DNA of 64,000 nt from an uncultured Planctomycetia bacterium (GCA_964406665.1 CAYOSQ010000002.1:182219-246218), one strand, 5' to 3'; counted from the stretch's first letter, positions 7,670 to 43,304 are shown. Notes: generated by a model from the letters alone, not told the origin. Translations and numbers: made by a program.

Positions 7670-9038
7670 TCAATCTCCCTTTCCAAGACTTAATTTGCTT
7701 TTGAACCAATACAGGCGATGTGCCCCCATAAGACTTCTTTAGCTTAACAGATGCCTTAGCGTTTAACAGTTTTTTTACATCCGCTTCAAAAGCATTAGAA
7801 TATTTCTTAAGCTCGCCCAAACTTAAATCAGAAAACTTTTTACCCCTATCTAAACACTTACGTACCATATTACCTACAGTATCGTGTGCTATTCGATAAG
7901 GAATACCCTTTTTGATAAGATACTCCATTACGTCAACAGCAAAGAGTGATTCATCTTCGATCTTTTTTTCTAGAGAAACTTTTTTAACCCTAACCCCTTT
8001 AAACAATTCTGCGAAAATCTCCAGTATCTCCTTAACAGAATCAACAGAACTAAATAAAGGTGGTTTATCCAACTGCATATCTCGATTATAAGAAAGTGGC
8101 AATCCTTTCATCATGATTAATACACTGGATAAATCTCCAAGAACTTTTCCTACGGTTGCACGGATTAATTCTAATATATCCGGATTTTTCTTCTGAGGCA
8201 TTATTGAAGAACCCGTACAAAATGACCAATCTATGCCGATAAAGTTAAATTCCCGCGTAGACCAAAGAATCAAATCTTCTGCAATCCGTGATAAATGAAC
8301 CGAAAGCAATGAAATAGTAGATAACATTTCTATTACAAAATCTCGATCACTTATTGAATCAATGCTATTAGCAGTTATCTTGTTAAAACCTAATTCTTTT
8401 GCAACTAGATTACGATTTATTCCTAAGGATGTTCCGCTTAAGGCGCAAGCACCAAGTGGCATAACCGCTGTTCTTTTTGAAGCATCTGAAAATCTTCCCT
8501 TATCGCGCTGAAGTATTTCTACATAGGCTAAAACATGATGAGCAAGCAAAACAACTTGAGCAGGTTGCATATGTGTATACGCCGGCATAATAACATCTTT
8601 GTTCTTATTGGCAAAAGCAACTATAGATTTTTGTAAATTTGTTATTAGATTGCTTATCGTTTTAGCTTCATCCAAACAGTACATTTTCATGTCTAATGCA
8701 ATTTGATCATTTCTTGAGCGAGCCGTATGAAGCTTGCCAGCAACCGAACCAATTCGATTTTCCAAAGCTTGCTGAACATCAGAATGTATATCCTCAGCTT
8801 TCAAATTAAATTTAAACTTATTTTTTTTGACCTTAGACAGAATTTCATTTAAACCTTTTACGATTTTTTGAGAATCCTTTAATGGGATAATTTTACTTTT
8901 CCCTAGCATCTTTGCATGAGCAATACTTCCCATTAGGTCGTACTTGGCCAAGCGTTTATCAAAAGATATGCTTGAGCTAAACTGATCAGCCAAAAGACTA
9001 GTCTTCTTTGCAAATCGAGAACCCCAAAGTTTTTTCAT
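7656..9038 (-). CDS. argH: Argininosuccinate lyase.
   Basis: MKKLWGSRFAK...SIMPQKKNPD fumarate-lyase signature. Confidence 0.9.
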   Translation of the reverse strand: MKKLWGSRFAKKTSLLADQFSSSISFDKRLAKYDLMGSIAHAKMLGKSKIIPLKDSQKIVKGLNEILSKVKKNKFKFNLKAEDIHSDVQQALENRIGSVAGKLHTARSRNDQIALDMKMYCLDEAKTISNLITNLQKSIVAFANKNKDVIMPAYTHMQPAQVVLLAHHVLAYVEILQRDKGRFSDASKRTAVMPLGACALSGTSLGINRNLVAKELGFNKITANSIDSISDRDFVIEMLSTISLLSVHLSRIAEDLILWSTREFNFIGIDWSFCTGSSIMPQKKNPDILELIRATVGKVLGDLSSVLIMMKGLPLSYNRDMQLDKPPLFSSVDSVKEILEIFAELFKGVRVKKVSLEKKIEDESLFAVDVMEYLIKKGIPYRIAHDTVGNMVRKCLDRGKKFSDLSLGELKKYSNAFEADVKKLLNAKASVKLKKSYGGTSPVLVQKQIKSWKGRLNARV

Positions 9039-33918: not shown

Positions 33919-35409
33919 CTAGCGATATCTTTCTTCTGAAATAAGATTTCTTTTTTCGTCAAATGTTTTTTTATTAACTGCTACACCTTGTTCATATAGA
34001 ATTTCAGAGAGCAACACACCTTCTATGCTATACTCTCTTGCTAATCCGTCTAATATATCGTTTTTGTATGTTTCTTCACCTCTGAGTTTGCCGTTTTCAT
34101 GATAATCTCTAACAGTCCCCTGAAGCTTCCCGTCGGTATAGTTGGCAGCTGTCTCCATTCTTCCATTTTTGTAATAAAGCATAATACCGCCGTGAAGCTT
34201 ACCGTCTTTTCGGCTGAGCCTTGATTTAATTGTTCCATTATCATAGTATTCATAAGCTGCTTCTAGAATAATTTTTCCCTTTACGTCATAATTAACCTGC
34301 TGTGTCGTTTTACCATTCTCATAATACGTCACTCTCATTAAATTTCCACCAATATAGTAATCCCGGGCAGCACCTTCTATCTTATTATCCCTATAAGTCT
34401 TCTCAGATTGAATCTTTCCATCTTTATAATATCTCTTGCTGACTCCGTGAATTTTATAATTAACATAAGGGATTTCGGCTGCAAGTTCTCCGGTATTGTA
34501 GAATTCTTTCTTTATCCCTTCAATCTTTCCTTTAATATATCTAGCCTGAGATCTTAGCCGGCCATTTTTATGATATATTTTACGGGTTCCCTCAATCCTC
34601 CCATTGACAAAAATCTCCTCAATTTCTAGTTCTCCGGTTTTAAAATAATGCTTCCCCGGTCCGTCAGCATTACCATTTTTATAGATTATTTCAGAGGCGA
34701 GCTGTCCATTTACATGATAATATTTGCGCTTGCCGTGCTTTCTTCCGTTAACATAAGGTTGAATAACAGAAATTTGCCCTGTCTTATAATAAGTTTTTTT
34801 CAATCCGTGGCGCCTTCCACTTTTCATAGCGGTAATGGATTCTATTTTTCCGTTTGGCCAGTATTTCTTTTTATAGGTTGTTCTAAATTTATTATTTAAG
34901 GTTATGGCAATAGTTAAAATACTCCCCAAAATGCAGGTCAGCAGAAAGCCTATAACAACTTTTTTTATAGGGATTCTTTTCTTCGCAACCACTTCTGCAT
35001 CAGGTAATACATCCATCTTTTCAGATGCCTTAAACTGATCTCTTACCTTTTTTCTGGTAAAGAAAACAATAAAAACTGTTGCAAAGACCAGAGGCACAAC
35101 GGCTAAATTAAATACAGGAGAAGTACGATATATTCTTCCATGTTTAATTATGGGCATTAATCCGAAAAAAAACCCTGGAAGCGAGCTTAATAATATAGCG
35201 ATTGAAAGCAACAGTGACAGAAACCATCCGATTATATTCAAACGAAATACAAGAATTCCTGAGATAAACACCAGCATTCCAATCAAGCCCACCCTTATAA
35301 ACACAATTCCACCGCTAAAAAGAGCAAAAATGCTGCTAGTAATTGCTAATCCTAGCAGCATTTCAAATATGCTTATTAAGGTTACACCTATTGATCTCTT
35401 CTGAGTCAT
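33919..35409 (-). CDS. Polytopic membrane protein with C-terminal MORN-variant (YwqK-like) repeats.
   Basis: About four N-terminal TM helices, then at least 10 repeats of the form G.....Y..NG.L..E..Y.NG...G (for example KTYYKTGQISVIQPYVNGRKHG). Confidence 0.6.
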   Translation of the reverse strand: MTQKRSIGVTLISIFEMLLGLAITSSIFALFSGGIVFIRVGLIGMLVFISGILVFRLNIIGWFLSLLLSIAILLSSLPGFFFGLMPIIKHGRIYRTSPVFNLAVVPLVFATVFIVFFTRKKVRDQFKASEKMDVLPDAEVVAKKRIPIKKVVIGFLLTCILGSILTIAITLNNKFRTTYKKKYWPNGKIESITAMKSGRRHGLKKTYYKTGQISVIQPYVNGRKHGKRKYYHVNGQLASEIIYKNGNADGPGKHYFKTGELEIEEIFVNGRIEGTRKIYHKNGRLRSQARYIKGKIEGIKKEFYNTGELAAEIPYVNYKIHGVSKRYYKDGKIQSEKTYRDNKIEGAARDYYIGGNLMRVTYYENGKTTQQVNYDVKGKIILEAAYEYYDNGTIKSRLSRKDGKLHGGIMLYYKNGRMETAANYTDGKLQGTVRDYHENGKLRGEETYKNDILDGLAREYSIEGVLLSEILYEQGVAVNKKTFDEKRNLISEERYR

Positions 35410-35427
35410 TTTATTAAAATAAGAACT

Positions 35428-35550
35428 CTACTTCTTCTTTCTTCCCAATAAATAGCCAATACAAGCACCCATTATTGCAATACAGACCAAAACTAAAAGC
35501 TTGCTACATTGAGCATCGCTAAAAAAAGATCCAAGTGGACATGTGTTCAT
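35428..35550 (-). CDS. 40-aa small hydrophobic ORF upstream of the MORN-repeat gene (not in the track).
   Basis: My translation: MNTCPLGSFFSDAQCSKLLVLVCIAIMGACIGYLLGRKKK, with a weak SD (aagggaag). Confidence 0.3.
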   Translation of the reverse strand: MNTCPLGSFFSDAQCSKLLVLVCIAIMGACIGYLLGRKKK

Positions 35551-35794
35551 TTCTTCCCTTTCGTATATGAATATACCCTTTTAGGCGTTTTCGGTTTATG
35601 TTAAATTTAGAATCTCGGGTAACCAATATTCTACTATCCCTAACCCTTACTTGCAAGAGAAAATCGTAAACTATCTTTCAACCCGTTATTTATTAAAAAC
35701 ATTAATTAAATAAAACCGTGTTGACATTTTTAAATATAAATGGTAATTTTTTATAAGAAAGTTAAATTTTGTTTTTGAAGAAAATCATCTAAAA

Positions 35795-36022
35795 ATGTCA
35801 AAAACTAATATAATTCTCATCGCAGTAATTGCCGTTTCACTCTTTGTAATATTCATCCTCTCGAATAATAAAACCCCTGAAGTTTCTATCCCTCAAGGAG
35901 ATATAAAGGAACTACCTCCTCAACTTCGCAACGCTATAAGTGAATTGAACAAAGAAGAATATGAAGGTCTTTCTCAAAAACAGATAGAGGAAAAATTTAA
36001 ACAAAAGGGAATCCGGTTTTGA
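35795..36022 (+). CDS. Small membrane-anchored protein, hypothetical.
   Basis: N-terminal TM helix; overlaps the next gene by 4 nt. Confidence 0.5.
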   Translation: MSKTNIILIAVIAVSLFVIFILSNNKTPEVSIPQGDIKELPPQLRNAISELNKEEYEGLSQKQIEEKFKQKGIRF

Positions 36023-36453
36023 ACCTAAAGAAGAAATCCTTTACTATTATTGAAATAGTTATTGTTATATTAATCTTAGGTATTTTATCTGCCGTTGCCC
36101 TTCCTGGGATGTTTGATCTTACTTCAGATGCTAAAAATGCATCGGATGACTATACAATAGCTGCAATATTTGGTTTGGTAAATAACCTATATATGGAGAG
36201 CGCATTAAACTCCGCCACCTCTTCATATCCCACAATGACTCAAATTGTAAATAATCTTACCCAACCGATTTTCTATAACGGCCTTACTGCCAACGAGTGG
36301 TCTTATATTGAAGTTTTTGGTGGTAATATTATTGTCTTGTATTGCCCGCACGGAATTACTGGGGTAGGTAGGCGCTATTGGGTATATTTCCGCATTGATT
36401 TCCCCCCTTATGGTGCAGGAAGTATCGTAGAATTCGGCTCCGGCCCTCACTAA
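36019..36453 (+). CDS. Type IV pilin / pseudopilin with a prepilin N-terminal cleavage/methylation domain.
   Basis: KKKSFTIIEIVIVILILGILSAVALP (G/S|FTIIE class-III signal). Confidence 0.8.
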   Translation: MNLKKKSFTIIEIVIVILILGILSAVALPGMFDLTSDAKNASDDYTIAAIFGLVNNLYMESALNSATSSYPTMTQIVNNLTQPIFYNGLTANEWSYIEVFGGNIIVLYCPHGITGVGRRYWVYFRIDFPPYGAGSIVEFGSGPH

Positions 36454-36628
36454 TAAATTCGTACTCTCGCTAAAACCTAGTCTATTCTGCCCCGACCGCA
36501 AGCGGTCTGGATTGTTTACGCGAAGCGTAACCCTTTAGGGCTTCGTCCAAACGACTTATCTCCAGTGATTTACCTCACTGTCCATAAGTCGTGGCCACGC
36601 TAAAATTACAGGCGCCTAGAAAATTGGC

Positions 36629-36786
36629 GACGACATAAGTTATGGGGTGCTAAGCACGACGTAACTTATAGGTCGGAAGCCATCCCGCAAAGCGGGACAG
36701 ACGACATAAGTTATTGAGTGCTAAGCACGACGCAACTTATAGGTCGGAAGCCATCCCGCAAAGCGGGACAGACGATATAAGTTATG
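36629..36786 (+). repeat. Tandem direct repeat, unit A, 71 bp, about 2.2 copies.
   Basis: gacgacataagttat[g/t]g[g/a]gtgctaagcacgacg[t/c]aacttataggtcggaagccatcccgcaaagcgggaca is repeated head-to-tail at 36629 and 36700, with a partial third copy at 36771. Confidence 0.85.
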
Positions 36787-36960
36787 GACAGCACCGAAGG
36801 TGCAGGAAGATAAGTGATTATGTGCGCAGCCGCACCGACGCTTTTATCGGTGCAAAACAAGCACATCACTTAACGACAGCACCGAAGGTGCAGGAAGATA
36901 AGCGATTATGTGCGCAGTCGCACCGACGCTTTTATCGGTGCAAAACAAGCACAACATTAG
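36787..36960 (+). repeat. Tandem direct repeat, unit B, 88 bp, 2 copies.
   Basis: gacagcaccgaaggtgcaggaagataag[t/c]gattatgtgcgcag[c/t]cgcaccgacgcttttatcggtgcaaaacaagcaca... starts at 36787 and 36875. Each copy folds into a multi-stem structure. Confidence 0.85.
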
Positions 36961-36975
36961 CATCTCTACTAAAAA

Positions 36976-37020
36976 GGGCAGTCCTATAAATCATATTGGA
37001 CTGCCCCTAAAGCTTTTCTT
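36976..37020 (+). terminator. Rho-independent terminator closing the pilin / repeat-RNA transcript.
   Basis: gggcagtcc-N13-ggactgccc is a 9-bp GC stem followed by ctaaagcttttctt. Confidence 0.75.
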
Positions 37021-37048
37021 AATGCAAAGTACGTACTCGAATTTTCAG

Positions 37049-37156
37049 CTACTTCTTTTTAAGTGCATCTAGTACTTTATACAGCGTCTGCCTCATATCG
37101 TTTAAAAAGTAACAAATAGCAATGATCCCTAAAAGGATTAAAATATCTAATAACAT
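37049..37156 (-). CDS. 35-aa small hydrophobic protein (not in the track) with a strong SD.
   Basis: My translation: MLLDILILLGIIAICYFLNDMRQTLYKVLDALKKK, preceded by aaggaggtgataat-ATG. Confidence 0.5.
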   Translation of the reverse strand: MLLDILILLGIIAICYFLNDMRQTLYKVLDALKKK

Positions 37157-37204
37157 ATTATCACCTCCTTATTTCTTTAAAATTCTTAATAACAAAGCGT
37201 AAAA

Positions 37205-37579
37205 CTATAATAGTTTCTTGATATCTTCTAAAATCGCTCGGGCTGTGGTCTCATCACCCACACCAACACGAATTTCAATCTTCACATTTTTGGAACCTTT
37301 AACAAAAATATCAACAGCAACTTTCTTATCAGTCTGATCAGTACCACGAAGTTGAGTTACTCCACTCTTAGCAACCTTTTCAGTCAAGGCAATCTTTCTA
37401 GTTTCAAATACTTTTTCTGTTGCTGATACAGCCTCTATCATAGAAACATTTTCTTCAGAAATAATCTTTCCTGCTTGCCATAGTGCAGTTCCACCGGCAC
37501 CGGCCAATACTGCAACGCATCCACACAAGGTTATACTCATTATAACCAATAAAAAAGCACTAAACACCCTTCTTGCCAT
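37205..37579 (-). CDS. Hypothetical lipoprotein.
   Basis: Signal peptide plus lipobox ITLCGC. Confidence 0.55.
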   Translation of the reverse strand: MARRVFSAFLLVIMSITLCGCVAVLAGAGGTALWQAGKIISEENVSMIEAVSATEKVFETRKIALTEKVAKSGVTQLRGTDQTDKKVAVDIFVKGSKNVKIEIRVGVGDETTARAILEDIKKLL

Positions 37580-37800
37580 CCTTTTCTCCTTTCAACAGAA
37601 AAGACAACCCTGCTTTTAGAGTTGTCCGGAATTGATTAATTTGGTTTTAGATTTGTCAATAGGTACTGTCCTATCATAGTAAAGACTATTGTAGTATCTT
37701 TTATTGTTTTTTGCAAGCTGATATCCAATTAAATAGAGGATATCTTACCAGCTTATCATGCAGCTGGAGTTCACATCTAATCAACGTAATTATTCCTAAA

Positions 37801-37864
37801 TATAAAAGTACGTACTCAAGTACGTACTTTTATATCTATCGCTACTACGTAGTGACTACGTAGT
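37801..37864. promoter_or_regulatory. Cluster of perfect palindromes: a 34-bp palindrome TATAAAAGTACGTAC-tcaa-GTACGTACTTTTATA, plus two tandem copies of the 10-bp palindrome ACTACGTAGT. Candidate operator sites or a bidirectional terminator.
   Basis: Read directly. The half-site AAAGTACGTACT recurs at 37026-37037, on the other side of the lipoprotein and small-ORF unit. Confidence 0.5.
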
Positions 37865-37918
37865 TATATTATTATCAAAATATTATTAATTAACTATGTA
37901 CCTCCAGATCTTACGGAG

Positions 37919-38353
37919 TTAATCGACCTGATGAGCGGTAAGAAATAAAGCCTTTTCTAGAGCAACGAAGAAATCCTGATAAGTCTCAGCATCTTCAACT
38001 GACTTAATGCCGTATTGAGCATTTGCCCTAACTAATAGTTGTGCCTCTCCCCTAGATCTAACCGTAACAGTCATTTTTACAATGGCATATCCAAGAAACT
38101 TCTGTCCAGTTACAGAACCAATCATTAAATCTGCCTTTTCAATAACAAAATCTAGGTCTTGCATAGTGCTAATAACTGTTTGAACCATCATTTTTTTATC
38201 TACAGTATCAAAAGCTCTCGTTTGCATACTTCTTAACTGAACTTGGCTTTCATCCATCTCAAAAGCTCTACGCGCTGTATTCGCACAACCAAAACACAAT
38301 ACACTAATTACCAATACAATAAATATAGTTCTACAGTTTTTAAATCTTATCAT
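37919..38353 (-). CDS. Hypothetical lipoprotein (paralog of the next gene).
   Basis: Lipobox LCFGC. The C-terminal motif YQDFFVALEKALFLTAHQ matches YQKFFDSLSKAIFLEAHK in the neighbouring gene. Confidence 0.55.
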   Translation of the reverse strand: MIRFKNCRTIFIVLVISVLCFGCANTARRAFEMDESQVQLRSMQTRAFDTVDKKMMVQTVISTMQDLDFVIEKADLMIGSVTGQKFLGYAIVKMTVTVRSRGEAQLLVRANAQYGIKSVEDAETYQDFFVALEKALFLTAHQVD

Positions 38354-38883
38354 ATCTTATGTGCCTCCAGGAATATTGCTTTTGACAAACTATCAAAAAA
38401 TTTCTGATAAATTTCAGGGTCACTAATTGTCTCTACTCTACTAAGAGCCCCCATTTGATTCCATACCAATCTTTGAAAAGTTACCCTAACAACAATTTTA
38501 CTCTTATCGTAACTAAGTTTTCCAATAACAGAAGCTTTAACTTTTTGAGTAGCATCACAAGTAGAAGTTAAATTCGTACCAAACATAATATCCATAAAGA
38601 TAGCACCAGCTATCTGTCCACCATCCGTAGCATCACTACTCTTTGAACCAGCTATGAAACCCAATTCACTTTCACTGTCATCTAATGTAAAACCTAAATC
38701 TTGCAAAACACCAGCAATGGCAATAATTATTTGTTCTTCATCCACAGTTTCATACTGTCTCATTTGAAGAGTGCGTTTCTCCAAAGTTTCTTCAGGAAGT
38801 GCCAAAAAACCTTTTGGTATGCTGGCACAGCCAATTAATGAAGAACAAAAGTATAAAATAATTACCAACCTGAAAAACTTCAA
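38350..38883 (-). CDS. Hypothetical lipoprotein (paralog of the previous gene).
   Basis: Lipobox SLIGC; shared C-terminal motif; ATGA overlap with the downstream paralog. Confidence 0.55.
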   Translation of the reverse strand: MKFFRLVIILYFCSSLIGCASIPKGFLALPEETLEKRTLQMRQYETVDEEQIIIAIAGVLQDLGFTLDDSESELGFIAGSKSSDATDGGQIAGAIFMDIMFGTNLTSTCDATQKVKASVIGKLSYDKSKIVVRVTFQRLVWNQMGALSRVETISDPEIYQKFFDSLSKAIFLEAHKI

Positions 38884-38906
38884 AACAATCTCCTAACTTT
38901 CGATTA

Positions 38907-39323
38907 CTAAAATCTTGAAGTATGATAGGCAAAATCACGAACTTTTCCATCATTATCAAATTTAATAATCACTGTTAGCGTTCGCTGGCTTTTTGAAGCC
39001 GCTCCTGCACTACCTGGAGTTAAAAACTTCAATCCTGCTCCACTATCTGAATATACTACATCCGTAGCTATCTTATCATAGATCCAAACCTCACGCCTTT
39101 CCTCATCAGTACTAACAACATTTGGCGAACCTAAAACTTCAGCTACTTGGGCAGATGTCATTCCTACTGAAACTTCTCGCTGAACGGTTCCAACGGTAAG
39201 TCTATCTCCAGTATCATCACGAATTTGGTCCCTATGATAAGAAGCTGGAGCGCAGCCAACAAAAATAAATATTACTATCAAAAATAAATACAATGCTTTC
39301 ATCGTTACTCCTTTTTTAATCAA
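38907..39323 (-). CDS. BamE/SmpA-OmlA-like lipoprotein.
   Basis: Lipobox FVGC. LTVGTVQREVSVGMTSAQVAEVLGSP resembles the BamE core (IRVGMTQQQVAYALGTP). Confidence 0.5.
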   Translation of the reverse strand: MIKKGVTMKALYLFLIVIFIFVGCAPASYHRDQIRDDTGDRLTVGTVQREVSVGMTSAQVAEVLGSPNVVSTDEERREVWIYDKIATDVVYSDSGAGLKFLTPGSAGAASKSQRTLTVIIKFDNDGKVRDFAYHTSRF

Positions 39324-39462
39324 TTACCCTCTTTCGAACTACTTACGCGCAAATAAGCTTCTGATTGCATTCTATATCTAATCTCTAAAGCTGTCAATGT
39401 GTTATGCTTTAAAAATCATTAGTAAAAATCATTAGGACCGGTTCTATATATCTTATGCAATA

Positions 39463-39975
39463 TCAAGATGTTGAAAAAGAACTGTCCCCGAATCTATCTA
39501 GAGAAATATTATTTTGTATTATATCATTATTTATACTGTGATAAAGATAAAAATTGCTCCAAGGGTATTCTTCTGGGTTGTTTACCATCTTAGCTCTTAT
39601 TGGGTTATTATGAATATATTCTATACATTCTCTGATGTAATGGTCTTGTTCAATTACGTTACTTTTAAATCTTCCCTGGAAAAGATGGCCTATATAACTG
39701 TGTGACTTACGAAAAGAAAGGCCATAAGAAAGCATAATCGATTGCATGATTCTGGATATAGTATAGGGGTGGATGACTTCTATTACGATATGAAAATGAT
39801 TATCCATAAGGCAGAAGCCGTATAGCTTAAAAGAGAAACGTTCTTTGAATTTTGAGAGAACTTTTAGAAAAGTAATTTTATCTTCCTTTTCTTTTAAGAT
39901 CATTTGTCGATTGTTACCACGGGCGGTAACATGATAAACTGCGCTGCTGTAGTAGATTCTTCGCTGTCTAACCAT
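39463..39975 (-). CDS. IS200-like Y1 HUH transposase of the REP-associated tyrosine transposase (RAYT) type, stand-alone.
   Basis: HVTARGNNRQMI...CLMDNHFHIVIEV (HUH motif), GHLFQGRFKS, YIHNNPIRAKMV, EYPWSNF. No terminal inverted repeats or second IS gene were seen. Confidence 0.75.
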   Translation of the reverse strand: MVRQRRIYYSSAVYHVTARGNNRQMILKEKEDKITFLKVLSKFKERFSFKLYGFCLMDNHFHIVIEVIHPYTISRIMQSIMLSYGLSFRKSHSYIGHLFQGRFKSNVIEQDHYIRECIEYIHNNPIRAKMVNNPEEYPWSNFYLYHSINNDIIQNNISLDRFGDSSFSTS

Positions 39976-40081
39976 AGTAGGGACACTTCTTTAGCAAGTT
40001 GTTAGCTCATATATAGTTATTGAGAACCGGTCATTATTTTTGTTATTATTTTTGTCTTTTTTTTGAAAAATGTTTACGGAA

Positions 40082-40444
40082 TTACAAATCAGGTCCCCAT
40101 CCACAGCCCTCTATTCCCCCTTTTTCGATATCAACATATACAGAGAACCACTCAAGACCTTGTTTTCTTTTTATGGTTCGATTAGCTTCAAATCTAATTT
40201 CACAAGTTCCATTTGGAATCGACCAGCCTTTCTCTATAACTTGAGGTTTTGCAATGATACAATCGTTGTTAATTCCTTTATCAATAAGATAGTTTTGTGC
40301 AATAATTATTGCTTCTTCTCTGCTTACACCATCAGAAATATTTATTACTTTCATTTTCTCTTTAATTATTGACTCAAAGCTAGGTCTATTTCCCATAGCT
40401 TCTCCTTTTTTTGCAACAAAAACTATCAAATTTATTGCTAACAA
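40082..40444 (-). CDS. Hypothetical small protein immediately downstream of the RHS toxin fragment; candidate cognate immunity protein.
   Basis: Position and size (120 aa) are typical of Rhs-CT immunity genes. No recognisable motif. Confidence 0.4.
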   Translation of the reverse strand: MLAINLIVFVAKKGEAMGNRPSFESIIKEKMKVINISDGVSREEAIIIAQNYLIDKGINNDCIIAKPQVIEKGWSIPNGTCEIRFEANRTIKRKQGLEWFSVYVDIEKGGIEGCGWGPDL

Positions 40445-40485
40445 TATCAGAACTAAAAATTTTATCTTTATTTGACTTAACTCCT

Positions 40486-41631
40486 TTATGGCATATCAGG
40501 AAACCCGGGTGTCCATCCATCAATAGGAACATCTCCGCCAGCTCCATATATTACACTATTCACAGCGAAATTGCTATTATGATCTGTGGCTATATAAGAA
40601 AACTTACCAACAAAGGTAGATTCATAAAATGCAATATTTTCTTGTAATGCACTCATATTTATATCCACATTAAATGACTCAACATAACGACCGCCTAAAG
40701 ATAAAGATTTTTCTGTACAATTATGGGTTCCCCATCCTGATAAATTGTCTACTTTGTTAGTTGTTGTTATTTGACGAGCCATAGGATCAGGTCCCATTTC
40801 AAACTTACCGTTTTTTAGCTGATCAGAAATAATCGCCCGATGTCTTGGCCCAGTTGTACTTCCTGGATCATTAGCTAAATTCTTGCCCAATGGTCTTTGG
40901 ACTATTCCAACAGTACTATCTTTCTGATTCGCATTTAGGGCATATCTTGCTCTCATTTCTGTGGCGTATTCATTAAATTGTGCATCTCTATTTGAAACCC
41001 AACCATCGCCTGCTTTCCAGTTTTGAAATTGTTCCGATTTAGCAACGCCTGAACTGAGAGCTCCACCGGTAATTCCTCCAGTAAATCCTCCAGCAAAGCT
41101 ATCCCAGCTATCGGTTGTGCCTGCGGCTCCTGCGCCAACAACAAACATCCCTGCCAGAACACCGTAATGTTCACCGCCAATAGCCCATCCTCCAAGCCCA
41201 CCCAGGGCTCCTCCTGCGGCTGCACCTATCAGCATTCCTTTCCAGCCACCCTCAAGGCCTCCTGTAATGGCGCCACCCAATGACCCTCCAATAATACCTG
41301 CCATTGTTGTACCAACTAGAGCAAAACCAGCAGGACCAAGAAGAACTGCTGCAGCAGCACCCACAAATGCTCCTGCAAAGCTATTCCAAAACTTCTTCCA
41401 TGACCAATGACCAGAAGGATCTATTCTATTTACAGGATTGTTTAAACAGTAAGAATATCTATTTAAACTCTGAGGATTATGCGGACCGGGTACTATCGTA
41501 TCAGCTGTTATAAATCTGCCAATGAGCGGATTATAATATCTAGCTCCATTCAGCTCAAAAAAAGTTTTAAAGTCGGTAAATAAGATTATTCTTAAATAAA
41601 CAAAAGTAGGATGCTTGTTAAAAAAAATCAA
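40486..41631 (-). CDS. Orphan RHS-repeat-associated C-terminal toxin module. It keeps only the last ~30 aa of the RHS core, followed by a glycine-zipper-rich region and a roughly 200-aa C-terminal domain of unknown activity.
   Basis: ARYYNPLIGRFITADTIVPGPHNPQSLNRYSYCLNNPVNRIDPSGH is the canonical RHS core end (YYDP..GRF...DP; the DPxG autocleavage site). No N-terminal RHS body or promoter space is present (only 5 bp to the divergent kinase gene). Confidence 0.75.
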   Translation of the reverse strand: MIFFNKHPTFVYLRIILFTDFKTFFELNGARYYNPLIGRFITADTIVPGPHNPQSLNRYSYCLNNPVNRIDPSGHWSWKKFWNSFAGAFVGAAAAVLLGPAGFALVGTTMAGIIGGSLGGAITGGLEGGWKGMLIGAAAGGALGGLGGWAIGGEHYGVLAGMFVVGAGAAGTTDSWDSFAGGFTGGITGGALSSGVAKSEQFQNWKAGDGWVSNRDAQFNEYATEMRARYALNANQKDSTVGIVQRPLGKNLANDPGSTTGPRHRAIISDQLKNGKFEMGPDPMARQITTTNKVDNLSGWGTHNCTEKSLSLGGRYVESFNVDINMSALQENIAFYESTFVGKFSYIATDHNSNFAVNSVIYGAGGDVPIDGWTPGFPDMP

Positions 41632-41636
41632 ATACT

Positions 41637-43304
41637 ATGATGTCTGATTTCATATCGCGCCTAAATCTTTTTGCAGTATCTTCAATTCTCATTTTTTTCT
41701 CTAACCTAACTATATCTATACTTGCATTTCTGAAAGGACAGGACAAGCGATTAAGCATTGTCTTTGGTCTACTTTGTCTTTGCGTTACTACTTGGGGAAT
41801 CGGAGGATATATTTCCTCTACAACAACATCCAAAGAGATTGCTTATCTAGGATGGCAAATTGCGAACATATGTTCAGTATTCGTATCACCAATATATTTT
41901 CATCTTGTCTGCATATACACTAAAACAGCTAGAAAACATCTGCTTTTGTTGATGTATTTTTGTGGATTCGTATTTATCTCTTTTAATTTCTTTGCTAAAG
42001 AAATGTTTTTAGGGGACTTGCAGTTACTTTTTAATCAATTTTATTATATTAGCTGGTCTGTAGACAAGAATTTGATTTACTTAATTTTTTATATTTGCTT
42101 CTATTGGATTTTTTTATTATATTCTTTTTATATATTGGTGAGAAATTTTTTAAATTCAAGTAAAAAAAAGCGCAATGAGATAAAATATTTTTTAATAGGA
42201 ACAAGCATTGGATGGCTAGGAGCTCATGGTGATTTTTTAAGCGTGTTTAAACCAACTTTTTATCCGTACTTAAATTTTTTAATAGCTATTTATCCTATTA
42301 TTTTGACTTACGCAATCTTTAAACACCAGCTCATGGATATAAAAATCGTTCTTCGTAAGGGACTTGTATATTCTATTTTAATTGCTTTTATAACTATAAT
42401 CTATTTGCTAGTTGTGCTTTTGTTTGAAAAGCTACTTCAGGGAATTGTAGGCTATCAATCAATATTTACTAGCATACTGACTGCTCTAATAATTGCACTT
42501 ATTTTTATTCCCCTAAAGAACAAAATACAAAACTTCGTTGATATGGTATTTTTCCAGGGAACCTTTACTCAAATCGCCAAGGAAAAAGAACTAATAAGCG
42601 AGGAGCTTAATCGCTCTGAACGGCTAAAATCAGTAGCTACTTTTGCATCTGGCATGGCCCATGAAATTAAAAATCCCTTAACTGCGATAAAGACATTCAC
42701 TGAGTACTTACCAGAGAAAAAGAACGACCCTGAATTTCTAGACAAATTTTCTAAGATTGTTTCAGGAGAAGTAGGCAGAATTGATTCTTTGGTTCATCAA
42801 CTATTAGACTTTGCTAAACCCTCTCTCCCCAAGCTCATTCCTGTTAACATCCATACTCTTCTTGAAGAAACCCTGAGCTTCCTTAATAATCAACTAATTA
42901 AACATAAAATTAAAGTAAAAAAAGAGCTAAGAGCAACGCAATTTACTATACAAGCTGATTTAAATCAGCTAAAGCAAGCATTCTTAAATATATTTCTGAA
43001 TGCGATTGACGCAATGCCTAATGGTGGCTCTTTTGATATCAAGACTACAGCTATTAATTCACAAACAGCAGACAAACAATTCATTCAAATTATAATAAGC
43101 GATACTGGATGTGGTATCAGAAAAAAGGATTTACCGCATATTTTTGAACCGTTTTATACAGCTAAAGATGGCGGGGCAGGCTTAGGACTTTCGATTACAC
43201 ACGAAATTATAAAAAATCACGACGGGAAAATACTTGTTGAGAGTAACACTAACAAAGGAACAACCTTTATAATTGAATTACCTTTAAAAAGTAATAACTA
43301 CTAA
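41637..43304 (+). CDS. Sensor histidine kinase with an N-terminal multi-TM sensor domain (paralog 1).
   Basis: Six to seven TM helices with WGIGGYISSTTTSKEIAYLGWQIANI, then HisKA (SHEIKNPLTAIKTF) and HATPase_c (DTGCGI...GLGLSI). Confidence 0.85.
   Translation: MMSDFISRLNLFAVSSILIFFSNLTISILAFLKGQDKRLSIVFGLLCLCVTTWGIGGYISSTTTSKEIAYLGWQIANICSVFVSPIYFHLVCIYTKTARKHLLLLMYFCGFVFISFNFFAKEMFLGDLQLLFNQFYYISWSVDKNLIYLIFYICFYWIFLLYSFYILVRNFLNSSKKKRNEIKYFLIGTSIGWLGAHGDFLSVFKPTFYPYLNFLIAIYPIILTYAIFKHQLMDIKIVLRKGLVYSILIAFITIIYLLVVLLFEKLLQGIVGYQSIFTSILTALIIALIFIPLKNKIQNFVDMVFFQGTFTQIAKEKELISEELNRSERLKSVATFASGMAHEIKNPLTAIKTFTEYLPEKKNDPEFLDKFSKIVSGEVGRIDSLVHQLLDFAKPSLPKLIPVNIHTLLEETLSFLNNQLIKHKIKVKKELRATQFTIQADLNQLKQAFLNIFLNAIDAMPNGGSFDIKTTAINSQTADKQFIQIIISDTGCGIRKKDLPHIFEPFYTAKDGGAGLGLSITHEIIKNHDGKILVESNTNKGTTFIIELPLKSNNY

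Follow-up and report, generated by a model that had tools for sequence, protein, structure and literature searches.

A probable displaced orphan cassette of a BC-type RHS toxin with a predicted cognate immunity gene

Orphan rhs-CT/rhsI cassettes are known in the Enterobacteria, namely in E. coli, Salmonella, Serratia and Dickeya, and orphan RHS cassettes are an established bacterial store of alternative toxin tips. Here we describe a gene pair at positions 40,082 to 41,631 of a 64,000-nucleotide stretch of DNA from an uncultured Planctomycetia bacterium (GCA_964406665.1 CAYOSQ010000002.1:182219-246218, hereafter the window), which is very probably the displaced C-terminal end of a BC-type RHS toxin gene, an orphan cassette truncated on its 5' side, together with its cognate immunity gene. 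The source genome probably belongs to the Omnitrophota. As in the enterobacterial cassettes, the gene is truncated at its 5' end and keeps a short piece of the core and a complete variable C-terminal (CT) domain, the toxin is without a translation start of its own, and a small, predicted cognate immunity gene follows it; the classical main/immunity/orphan/immunity layout is moreover found in a relative, locus L024, where a 2313-aa main gene comes first and a 482-aa orphan second, each followed by a small gene. The window cassette differs from the enterobacterial ones in that it adjoins a divergent histidine kinase gene instead of lying downstream of a main rhs gene, in that the parents of its family are SpvB/TcdB_midN-RHS fusions and not PAAR- or VgrG-linked Rhs proteins, and in that it keeps only about 47 core residues and belongs to toxin and immunity families that are undescribed.

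The full-length carriers of the same CT domain resemble the TcB-TcC cocoon of the Tc (ABC) toxins (TcdB2-TccC3, YenB/YenC): SpvB, TcdB_toxin_midN, FG-GAP and RHS stand in one chain, which ends in an RHS core tail ahead of the released toxin, and the tail in the window has a weak similarity to the C-terminal ends of TccC3 and YenC2. No TcA-like partner was seen, though none was searched for. Unlike in the Tc toxins, the released region in the window family starts with a conserved glycine-zipper module, and because immunity genes are present we infer bacterial targets and sibling protection, not insect toxicity. Immunity proteins to envelope-acting effectors of the type VI secretion system (Tae/Tai, Tge/Tgi, Tle/Tli) are periplasmic, and the candidate immunity proteins described here likewise carry signal peptides, lipoboxes or transmembrane segments, but the window pair has no sequence or fold similarity to these families. 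The architecture is thus of a kind already known, while the toxin and immunity families are described in none of the searched databases. The pair defined here comprises about 87 representative clusters, almost all from Omnitrophota, and shows that these bacteria, which are ultra-small and may depend on hosts, vary their BC-type RHS toxins just as enterobacteria do.

A truncated toxin gene beside a kinase gene

As the first-pass annotation of this DNA had proposed, the toxin open reading frame (ORF) consists only of an RHS core tail and a variable C-terminal region. Its full-length homologues share the tail, the zipper and the CT domain. Residues 27-75 match the NCBIfam model TIGR03696 (Rhs_assc_core) over positions 32-76 of 76 (E 8e-15; 55.1 bits against a cutoff of 32.5), that is, over the second half of the model only, and the two motifs with Asp from the C-terminal autoproteolysis region lie within them. 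In PDB entries the tail aligns to the extreme C-terminal core of the solved Rhs/TcC proteins 7q97, 8h8a, TccC3 and YenC2. By the TIGR03696 match, about 47 core residues are retained; the RHS core terminus reported earlier is therefore present, at a greater length than the 30 or so residues then claimed. No RHS_repeat, SpvB, TcdB or PAAR match was found in the ORF with Pfam, and only 26 codons of open frame precede the tail. The window likewise holds no main RHS gene, with no RHS repeats by Pfam and a largest ORF of 728 aa.

The long members of the family are SpvB + TcdB_toxin_midN + FG-GAP + RHS-repeat proteins of 2,000-3,500 aa. BC-type proteins that carry the domain at their C-terminus include P0029, P0032, P0043, P0060 and P0065, and P0077 is a DUF6531 + RHS protein with the domain in the same place. 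At locus L002, a 2314-aa SpvB/TcdB_midN/YD-shell protein ends in ...GLYYYGARYYDPVIGRF...NNPLKYVDPTGH, followed by the same glycine zipper and then by the same domain, and its gene is followed by a homologue of the 120-aa ORF that lies downstream of the window toxin; L010 (2077 aa) and L015 (2255 aa) have an architecture equivalent to that of L002, and all three are Omnitrophota metagenome loci. Because these three proteins end in the same tail, zipper and domain, we read the window ORF as the C-terminal part of such a protein. The annotated pair of ORFs, of 381 and 120 codons on the minus strand, is present in the window, and the parts of the cassette and its upstream neighbour are as follows.

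40486..41631, minus strand: toxin ORF, 381 codons, with its stop codon at 40486-40488
41554..41636, minus strand: AT-rich ORF leader, codons 1-26, ahead of the TIGR03696 match, which starts only at residue 27
41407..41553, minus strand: RHS core tail, residues 27-75 (GARYYNPLIGRFITADT...NRYSYCLNNPVNRIDPSGH), from TIGR03696, the ends of PDB Rhs/TcC chains and the ends of L002 and L010
41056..41406, minus strand: Gly/Ala-rich glycine-zipper module, residues 76-192 (WSWKKFWNSFAGAFVG...GGLEGGWKG...SWDSFAGGF), from GxxxG enrichment and metagenome relatives
40918..41055, minus strand: two-helix linker, residues ~193-238 (SEQFQNWKAGDGWVSNR...), the 189-aa query being helical at 4-14 and 22-41 in the AlphaFold model
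40489..40917, minus strand: variable toxin core, residues ~239-381, from the 87-cluster family, its conservation and the AlphaFold model
40082..40495, minus strand: predicted immunity gene, as the stop-to-stop frame opening at 40495, with homologues directly after the CT domain in 11 loci
40082..40444, minus strand: 120-codon ORF downstream of the toxin ORF, from the reading-frame listing
41637..43304, plus strand: divergent histidine kinase gene, intact, with Pfam HisKA_7TM, HisKA and HATPase_c

The kinase gene is the upstream boundary of the cassette, which is pressed against it as had been noted: the sole start candidate ahead of the RHS tail, by reading of the sequence, is a TTG at 41631-41629, next to the kinase ATG at 41637, and the in-frame stop that closes the toxin ORF upstream (TAG 41637-41635) overlaps that ATG. 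Codons 1-26 have no homology to RHS, and this leader probably also contains the promoter and 5' untranslated region of the kinase gene. ATG 41637 is taken as the real kinase start because the HisKA_7TM domain begins at residue 21, and the resulting 555-aa kinase is the correct call, not the 450-aa version. The latter comes from the public gene call of the contig (L004), which affects window positions 41637-41951 and adds a 71-aa antisense ORF at 41618-41833 on the minus strand, overlapping the start of the toxin ORF. The locus was recovered with 100% identity from six metagenome samples, and two of the contigs concerned cross the kinase/toxin junction; since two independent contigs span it, the junction is real and an assembly chimera is ruled out.

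The start region of the toxin ORF also sets it apart from the other genes around it. Among 47 long window genes, ATG opens 45, GTG two and TTG none, and 25 of the 47 have a recognizable Shine-Dalgarno (SD) sequence. The TTG at toxin codon 1 has no SD sequence, no in-frame ATG occurs ahead of codon 110, and the ORF thus reads as having no initiation signals of its own, as is characteristic of orphan cassettes. Matches to a promoter-like pattern are at chance level (six, against 6.4 expected from shuffled sequence). Given a TTG without an SD sequence, a start codon used by none of the 47 genes and chance-level promoter matches, the toxin part most likely lacks its own expression signals and is probably silent.

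Other orphans are cut at other points. The L001 orphan keeps the core from GLYYYGARYY onward and has no start codon ahead of its RHS tail, the L019 orphan keeps only LDPTGH of the core, and those of L013, L039 and L024 keep 110-145 core residues; at L014, on a complete Omnitrophota chromosome, the toxin is reduced to its 102 C-terminal residues and is accompanied by two immunity paralogues. Just upstream of the L001 orphan lies a second cassette (L001 571-1448), made up of a Gly-rich segment, a different 185-aa C-terminal domain, whose GSYMAGWQNS linker also occurs in P0012, and a membrane protein of 83 aa. L001 thus resembles an array of orphans that opens a 154-kb contig. L014 (9187-11308) and L019 (638-2616) share the same upstream neighbour, a divergent HTH_3+cupin regulator gene, and the toxin is nearly complete in L019 whereas it is cut to 102 aa beside the two immunity paralogues in L014, which looks like stepwise decay at one conserved site.

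Zipper module, linker and toxin core

Residues 76-195 are 30% Gly and 17% Ala and contain 20 GxxxG motifs, compared with 10.3 +/- 2.3 in composition-preserving shuffles, none of 2000 shuffles reaching 20. Their hydrophobicity profile has one clear segment (~84-112) and two weaker ones, with a mean hydropathy of up to 1.96 over 19 residues, and the region as a whole has the properties of a glycine-zipper membrane segment, with predicted insertion. The linker that follows carries the motif SEQFxNWxxGxGW or SEQFxNFxxGxGFxSNR and also precedes other CT types: profile positions 5-56 match L025, whose CT differs, and an hhalign comparison of A2 against A5 likewise found the linker to be common to another CT type.

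Scanning metagenome contigs with the tail and zipper returned 23 loci, 49-75% identical over this region, most of which end in domains without a match to the hidden Markov model (HMM) of the toxin core. Behind the same RHS tail, zipper and linker stand at least six other types of C-terminal domain, grouped by sequence motifs, among them AHSEG, HTHP (DUF4329/JAB-like), NCIGF, HTHGG...SAC and others (loci L020, L023, L024, L026-L028, L030, L034, L035, L037, L038 and L042). Only the HTHP type among these tips has a Pfam match, to DUF4329 and more weakly to Prok-JAB, and a homologue search with the NCIGF-type domain returned none; the AHSEG motif presumably resembles that of lipases, and HTHGG..SAC a caspase-like one. 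We thus identify a conserved glycine-zipper module which, with the linker, is a reusable pre-toxin module deployed with many tips and not private to the window toxin. The GxxxG repeats described in the first-pass annotation are accordingly real and enriched, but its suggestion of a pore-forming killer fits poorly with a module common to unrelated tips: because several such tips carry the same zipper, the zipper is disfavoured as the killing part of this toxin. Several of the tips other than that of the window are equally unannotated and point to a largely uncharted toxin repertoire among Omnitrophota BC-type RHS proteins, and because several tips on the same module share this state, an unknown CT is common and not exceptional in Omnitrophota.

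The CT domain had been described as a single domain of about 200 residues without a recognised motif and as a possible new toxin family. The absence of a known motif holds, and the family appears to be new, as no library matched and a confident model had no structural neighbour; the domain is not single, however, in that its first ~45 residues are the shared linker and the core measures ~140 residues. Neither the toxin core nor the whole CT domain has a match in Pfam, NCBIfam or PADLOC, and a Pfam scan of 13 family members to E 10 gave scattered single matches only. A sequence search of the PDB with the ORF matched the RHS tail alone, and a PDB profile search with the CT domain matched nothing. 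The C-terminal 189 residues were modelled with AlphaFold at a predicted local distance difference test (pLDDT) score of 83.6 and a predicted template modelling (pTM) score of 0.82, in the order helix, helix, four strands, helix, strand and two helices; the Foldseek comparison proposed earlier for this region, run against PDB and BFVD, gave no neighbour (best E 0.13-0.18, TM <=0.35). A literature search on Omnitrophota and Rhs brought up no account of this toxin family.

A word-indexed search with the same 189 residues found 12 proteins, all unannotated and all from metagenomes or a Candidatus Omnitrophica metagenome-assembled genome (MAG). Their profile, run against 1.84 billion representatives, yielded 87 clusters in which the domain is always at the extreme C-terminus, and the carriers of the family among representative genomes are six MAGs from Omnitrophota and one from Elusimicrobia. 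Over 67 diverse members, R245, H263, E277, G279, T305, Y335, Y345, N351, S352, N353 and G364 are near-invariant, and the polar residues of this set suggest an active-site-like pattern. S352 is Ser in 91% of members and Glu or Asp in the remainder, never Cys. We set the variable core at residues ~239-381 because the linker helices are shared with other tip types, and stand-alone copies of the core cover the same part, profile positions ~41-177.

These stand-alone copies, of 160-185 aa, lie within toxin loci (L003 764-1291, L010 10436-10930, L029 2747-3301) and carry signal-peptide or lipoprotein leaders; others are P0010, P0027 and P0042. The complete copies (L003, L029, P0010) keep R, H and E and have NEN in place of NSN, and the L010 copy ends ahead of the NSN position. 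They may be decoy or immunity-like paralogues, or an ancestral housekeeping enzyme. A permuted papain-like hydrolase with Ser for Cys was also considered as the identity of the core, on a presumed likeness to LRAT, PPPDE and NlpC-P60 proteins, H...NSNF compared with NCEHF/NCNHF, with the His on a strand and NCxxF at a helix start. Tests lent it no support, and it was rejected: the position is never Cys, neither Pfam to E 10 nor Foldseek gave a match, and the alignment to the related NCIGF-type domain is ambiguous and does not place its Cys on S352.

The predicted immunity gene

The 120-aa ORF downstream of the toxin, which had been pointed out for its position, is the predicted cognate immunity gene of the CT domain. 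HMMs of the toxin core and of the ORF family give neighbouring matches at 11 independent loci (the window, L001, L002, L003, L011, L013, L014, L015, L016, L017 and L039), and it is because this adjacency is conserved that we predict a cognate toxin-immunity pair. The immunity protein has no match in Pfam, NCBIfam or PADLOC and no PDB profile match. Its AlphaFold model (pLDDT 86.4) gave nothing significant with Foldseek against PDB (best E 0.22), and the top weak matches are of the PepSY type, namely YpmB 2gu3 (E 0.43, prob 0.75, TMq 0.43), FoxB 7abw and the vibriolysin propeptide 3nqz. With PepSY/YpmB-like domains the protein shares an order of helix, helix and then beta strands, but it has neither a Pfam PepSY match nor a significant fold match.

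The gene extends upstream of its listed start. An SD sequence, AAGGAG at 40486-40481, is followed after 9 nt by ATA 40471-40469, which in an alignment of 5'-end DNA falls on the signal-peptide ATG of L002 (region 7716-7735), L003 and L014, and the window leader is still in frame (..SQIKIKFLVLILLAINLIVFVAKKGEA, then MGNRPS). TTG 40444, the listed start of the 120-aa ORF, falls inside the hydrophobic core of this leader. Among at least 12 independent immunity homologues, the window's alone has no ATG or GTG ahead of the hydrophobic leader, and the others all have an N-terminal signal-like leader behind ATG or GTG. By this comparison the window gene has lost its signal-peptide start (ATG to ATA) and probably makes very little, if any, of the exported form.

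An internal ATG at 40396-40394 with a good SD sequence would give a leaderless product of 104 aa. In all six aligned homologues (the window, L001, L002, L003, L014 and L017) a Met directly follows the leader, and (A/G)AGG(A/G)G stands 5-6 nt upstream of this ATG (window 40394-40411); the peptide motif xGxAM[G/A/S] is found in almost all immunity homologues, L016 being without it. This suggests a second, leaderless and hence cytosolic isoform made from the internal start, and codon constraints could explain the pattern in part.

Proposed mechanism, rival readings and neighbouring genes

The parent of the cassette would be a BC-type RHS toxin of SpvB, TcdB_midN and FG-GAP domains with a YD/RHS shell. 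In the full-length proteins the shell would enclose the C-terminal region, which an aspartyl-protease motif ending in DPxGH would cut free, and the released piece would comprise the glycine-zipper membrane module, the two-helix linker and the toxin core of ~140 residues. What is left in the window is ~47 residues from the end of the core plus the complete releasable piece, without shell, delivery domain, ATG or ribosome-binding site. By itself such a fragment is most likely not made or not deliverable; the toxin fragment could serve solely as recombination stock for a full-length gene, and the immunity gene could still be protective. The zipper may insert into the target membrane, or carry the toxin to it, without being the killing part.

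As to the core, we tentatively favour, at slightly less than even confidence, an enzyme that acts on the envelope or the outer face of the cytoplasmic membrane, with the zipper anchoring or delivering it. An enzyme is suggested because the polar residues R245, H263, E277, Y335, Y345 and N351-S352-N353 are conserved, and a target at the envelope or periplasmic face because the candidate immunity partners are, without exception, exported or bound to a membrane: signal leaders mark the PepSY-like family, in L012 and L018 a BamE-like lipoprotein fills the immunity place right behind the toxin, a polytopic membrane protein follows the toxin in L025, and the stand-alone core paralogues have signal or lipoprotein leaders. 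With all partner proteins exported, the family offers a clean test case for the site of toxin action. A bolder version, in which the core has a fold of its own and founds a new enzymatic class among envelope toxins, with R245, H263, E277, Y345 and N-S-N as catalytic residues, is unlikely as a whole; it would involve three countermeasures (the exported PepSY-like immunity protein, the BamE-like lipoproteins, and the lipoprotein core copies with NSN changed to NEN as decoys) and immunity in two forms, exported and cytosolic, the latter from the conserved internal SD sequence and ATG.

Several observations pull the other way. No full-length gene with the same tail was found in the same population by a metagenome scan that returned relatives of 49-75% identity and missed the window's own contigs. 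The toxin part is intact, free of frameshifts and stops, which fits selection or a recent origin and not decay; an internal GTG at toxin codon 90 has AGGAG 5 nt upstream and could give a zipper+CT product, and a promoter-like TTGAGC-17-TATAAT lies at 41558-41530, inside the tail. The proposal of an envelope enzyme draws on the conserved polar residues and the partner locations, Foldseek having returned no neighbour, and the conserved internal SD sequence and ATG of the immunity genes may leave room for a cytosolic form and a cytosolic target.

Part of this would be expected if the ORF were an expressed, self-standing small toxin that starts at TTG 41631 or GTG codon 90 and inserts into membranes through its zipper without an RHS shell: the 355 homologous codons form one uninterrupted frame that does not differ between six samples, both candidate signals are at hand, and stand-alone exported core copies exist. 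We nevertheless regard this as highly improbable, given that the tail breaks off mid-motif and the other orphans have their breakpoints elsewhere, that TTG is used by no window gene, that promoter-like matches are no more frequent than chance, and that the product would have no signal peptide; the AGGAG/GTG pair, moreover, follows from the conserved peptide FAGAFVG, which is found inside full-length genes too. Hardly more credible, at a low probability, is a toxic pore formed by the glycine zipper with the C-terminal globular domain as an accessory or targeting domain, for the strong GxxxG enrichment and hydrophobic segments that speak for it occur ahead of at least six unrelated C-terminal domains, the downstream partner varies with the C-terminal domain, the polar residues conserved in the core are typical of an active site, and stand-alone core copies lack the zipper.

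A more serious contender, if still rather unlikely, takes the immunity gene as the selected unit, an orphan immunity against the toxins of neighbours, and the toxin fragment as its decaying passenger. L014, where the toxin is down to 102 aa and two immunity paralogues are kept, is what this would predict, as is L020, where an immunity homologue lies far from any matching toxin, and the window immunity gene does have its own SD sequence and ATG. The window itself, however, shows the opposite, an intact toxin next to an immunity gene that has lost its export-signal ATG. We therefore retain the displaced orphan cassette, a probably silent store of a toxin tip with its immunity gene, as the best explanation.

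Downstream of the immunity gene lie two further features.

39420..40048, minus strand: REP-associated tyrosine transposase (RAYT) region, with the gene at 39463-39975, directly after the immunity gene
38907..39323, minus strand: BamE-like lipoprotein gene (Pfam BamE, E 7e-7)

The RAYT gene scores 81.9 bits against NCBIfam NF047646, whose cutoff is 80, also matches Pfam Y1_Tnp and is flanked by the 34-nt inverted repeats I1 at 39420-39453 and 40015-40048. At L031, a RAYT fragment and an IS4-type transposase follow the immunity gene. Rfam at gathering thresholds gave no match in 35000-43000, and the segment at 36250-37000 is GC-rich (0.47-0.48, against ~0.35 around it), with only short, implausible ORFs.

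The window BamE-like protein is weakly related to the lipoproteins of the other loci (35% over 72 aa) and matches the 160-aa lipoprotein of L012 by BLASTP at E 1e-7 in a 7-sequence database; its gene may be a second immunity-type gene. Three more lipoprotein genes come after it (38350-38883, 37919-38353 and 37205-37579), and BamE-like lipoproteins are found beside cassettes at L001 140-517, L012 1237-1719, L018 831-1391 and L029 2341-2724.

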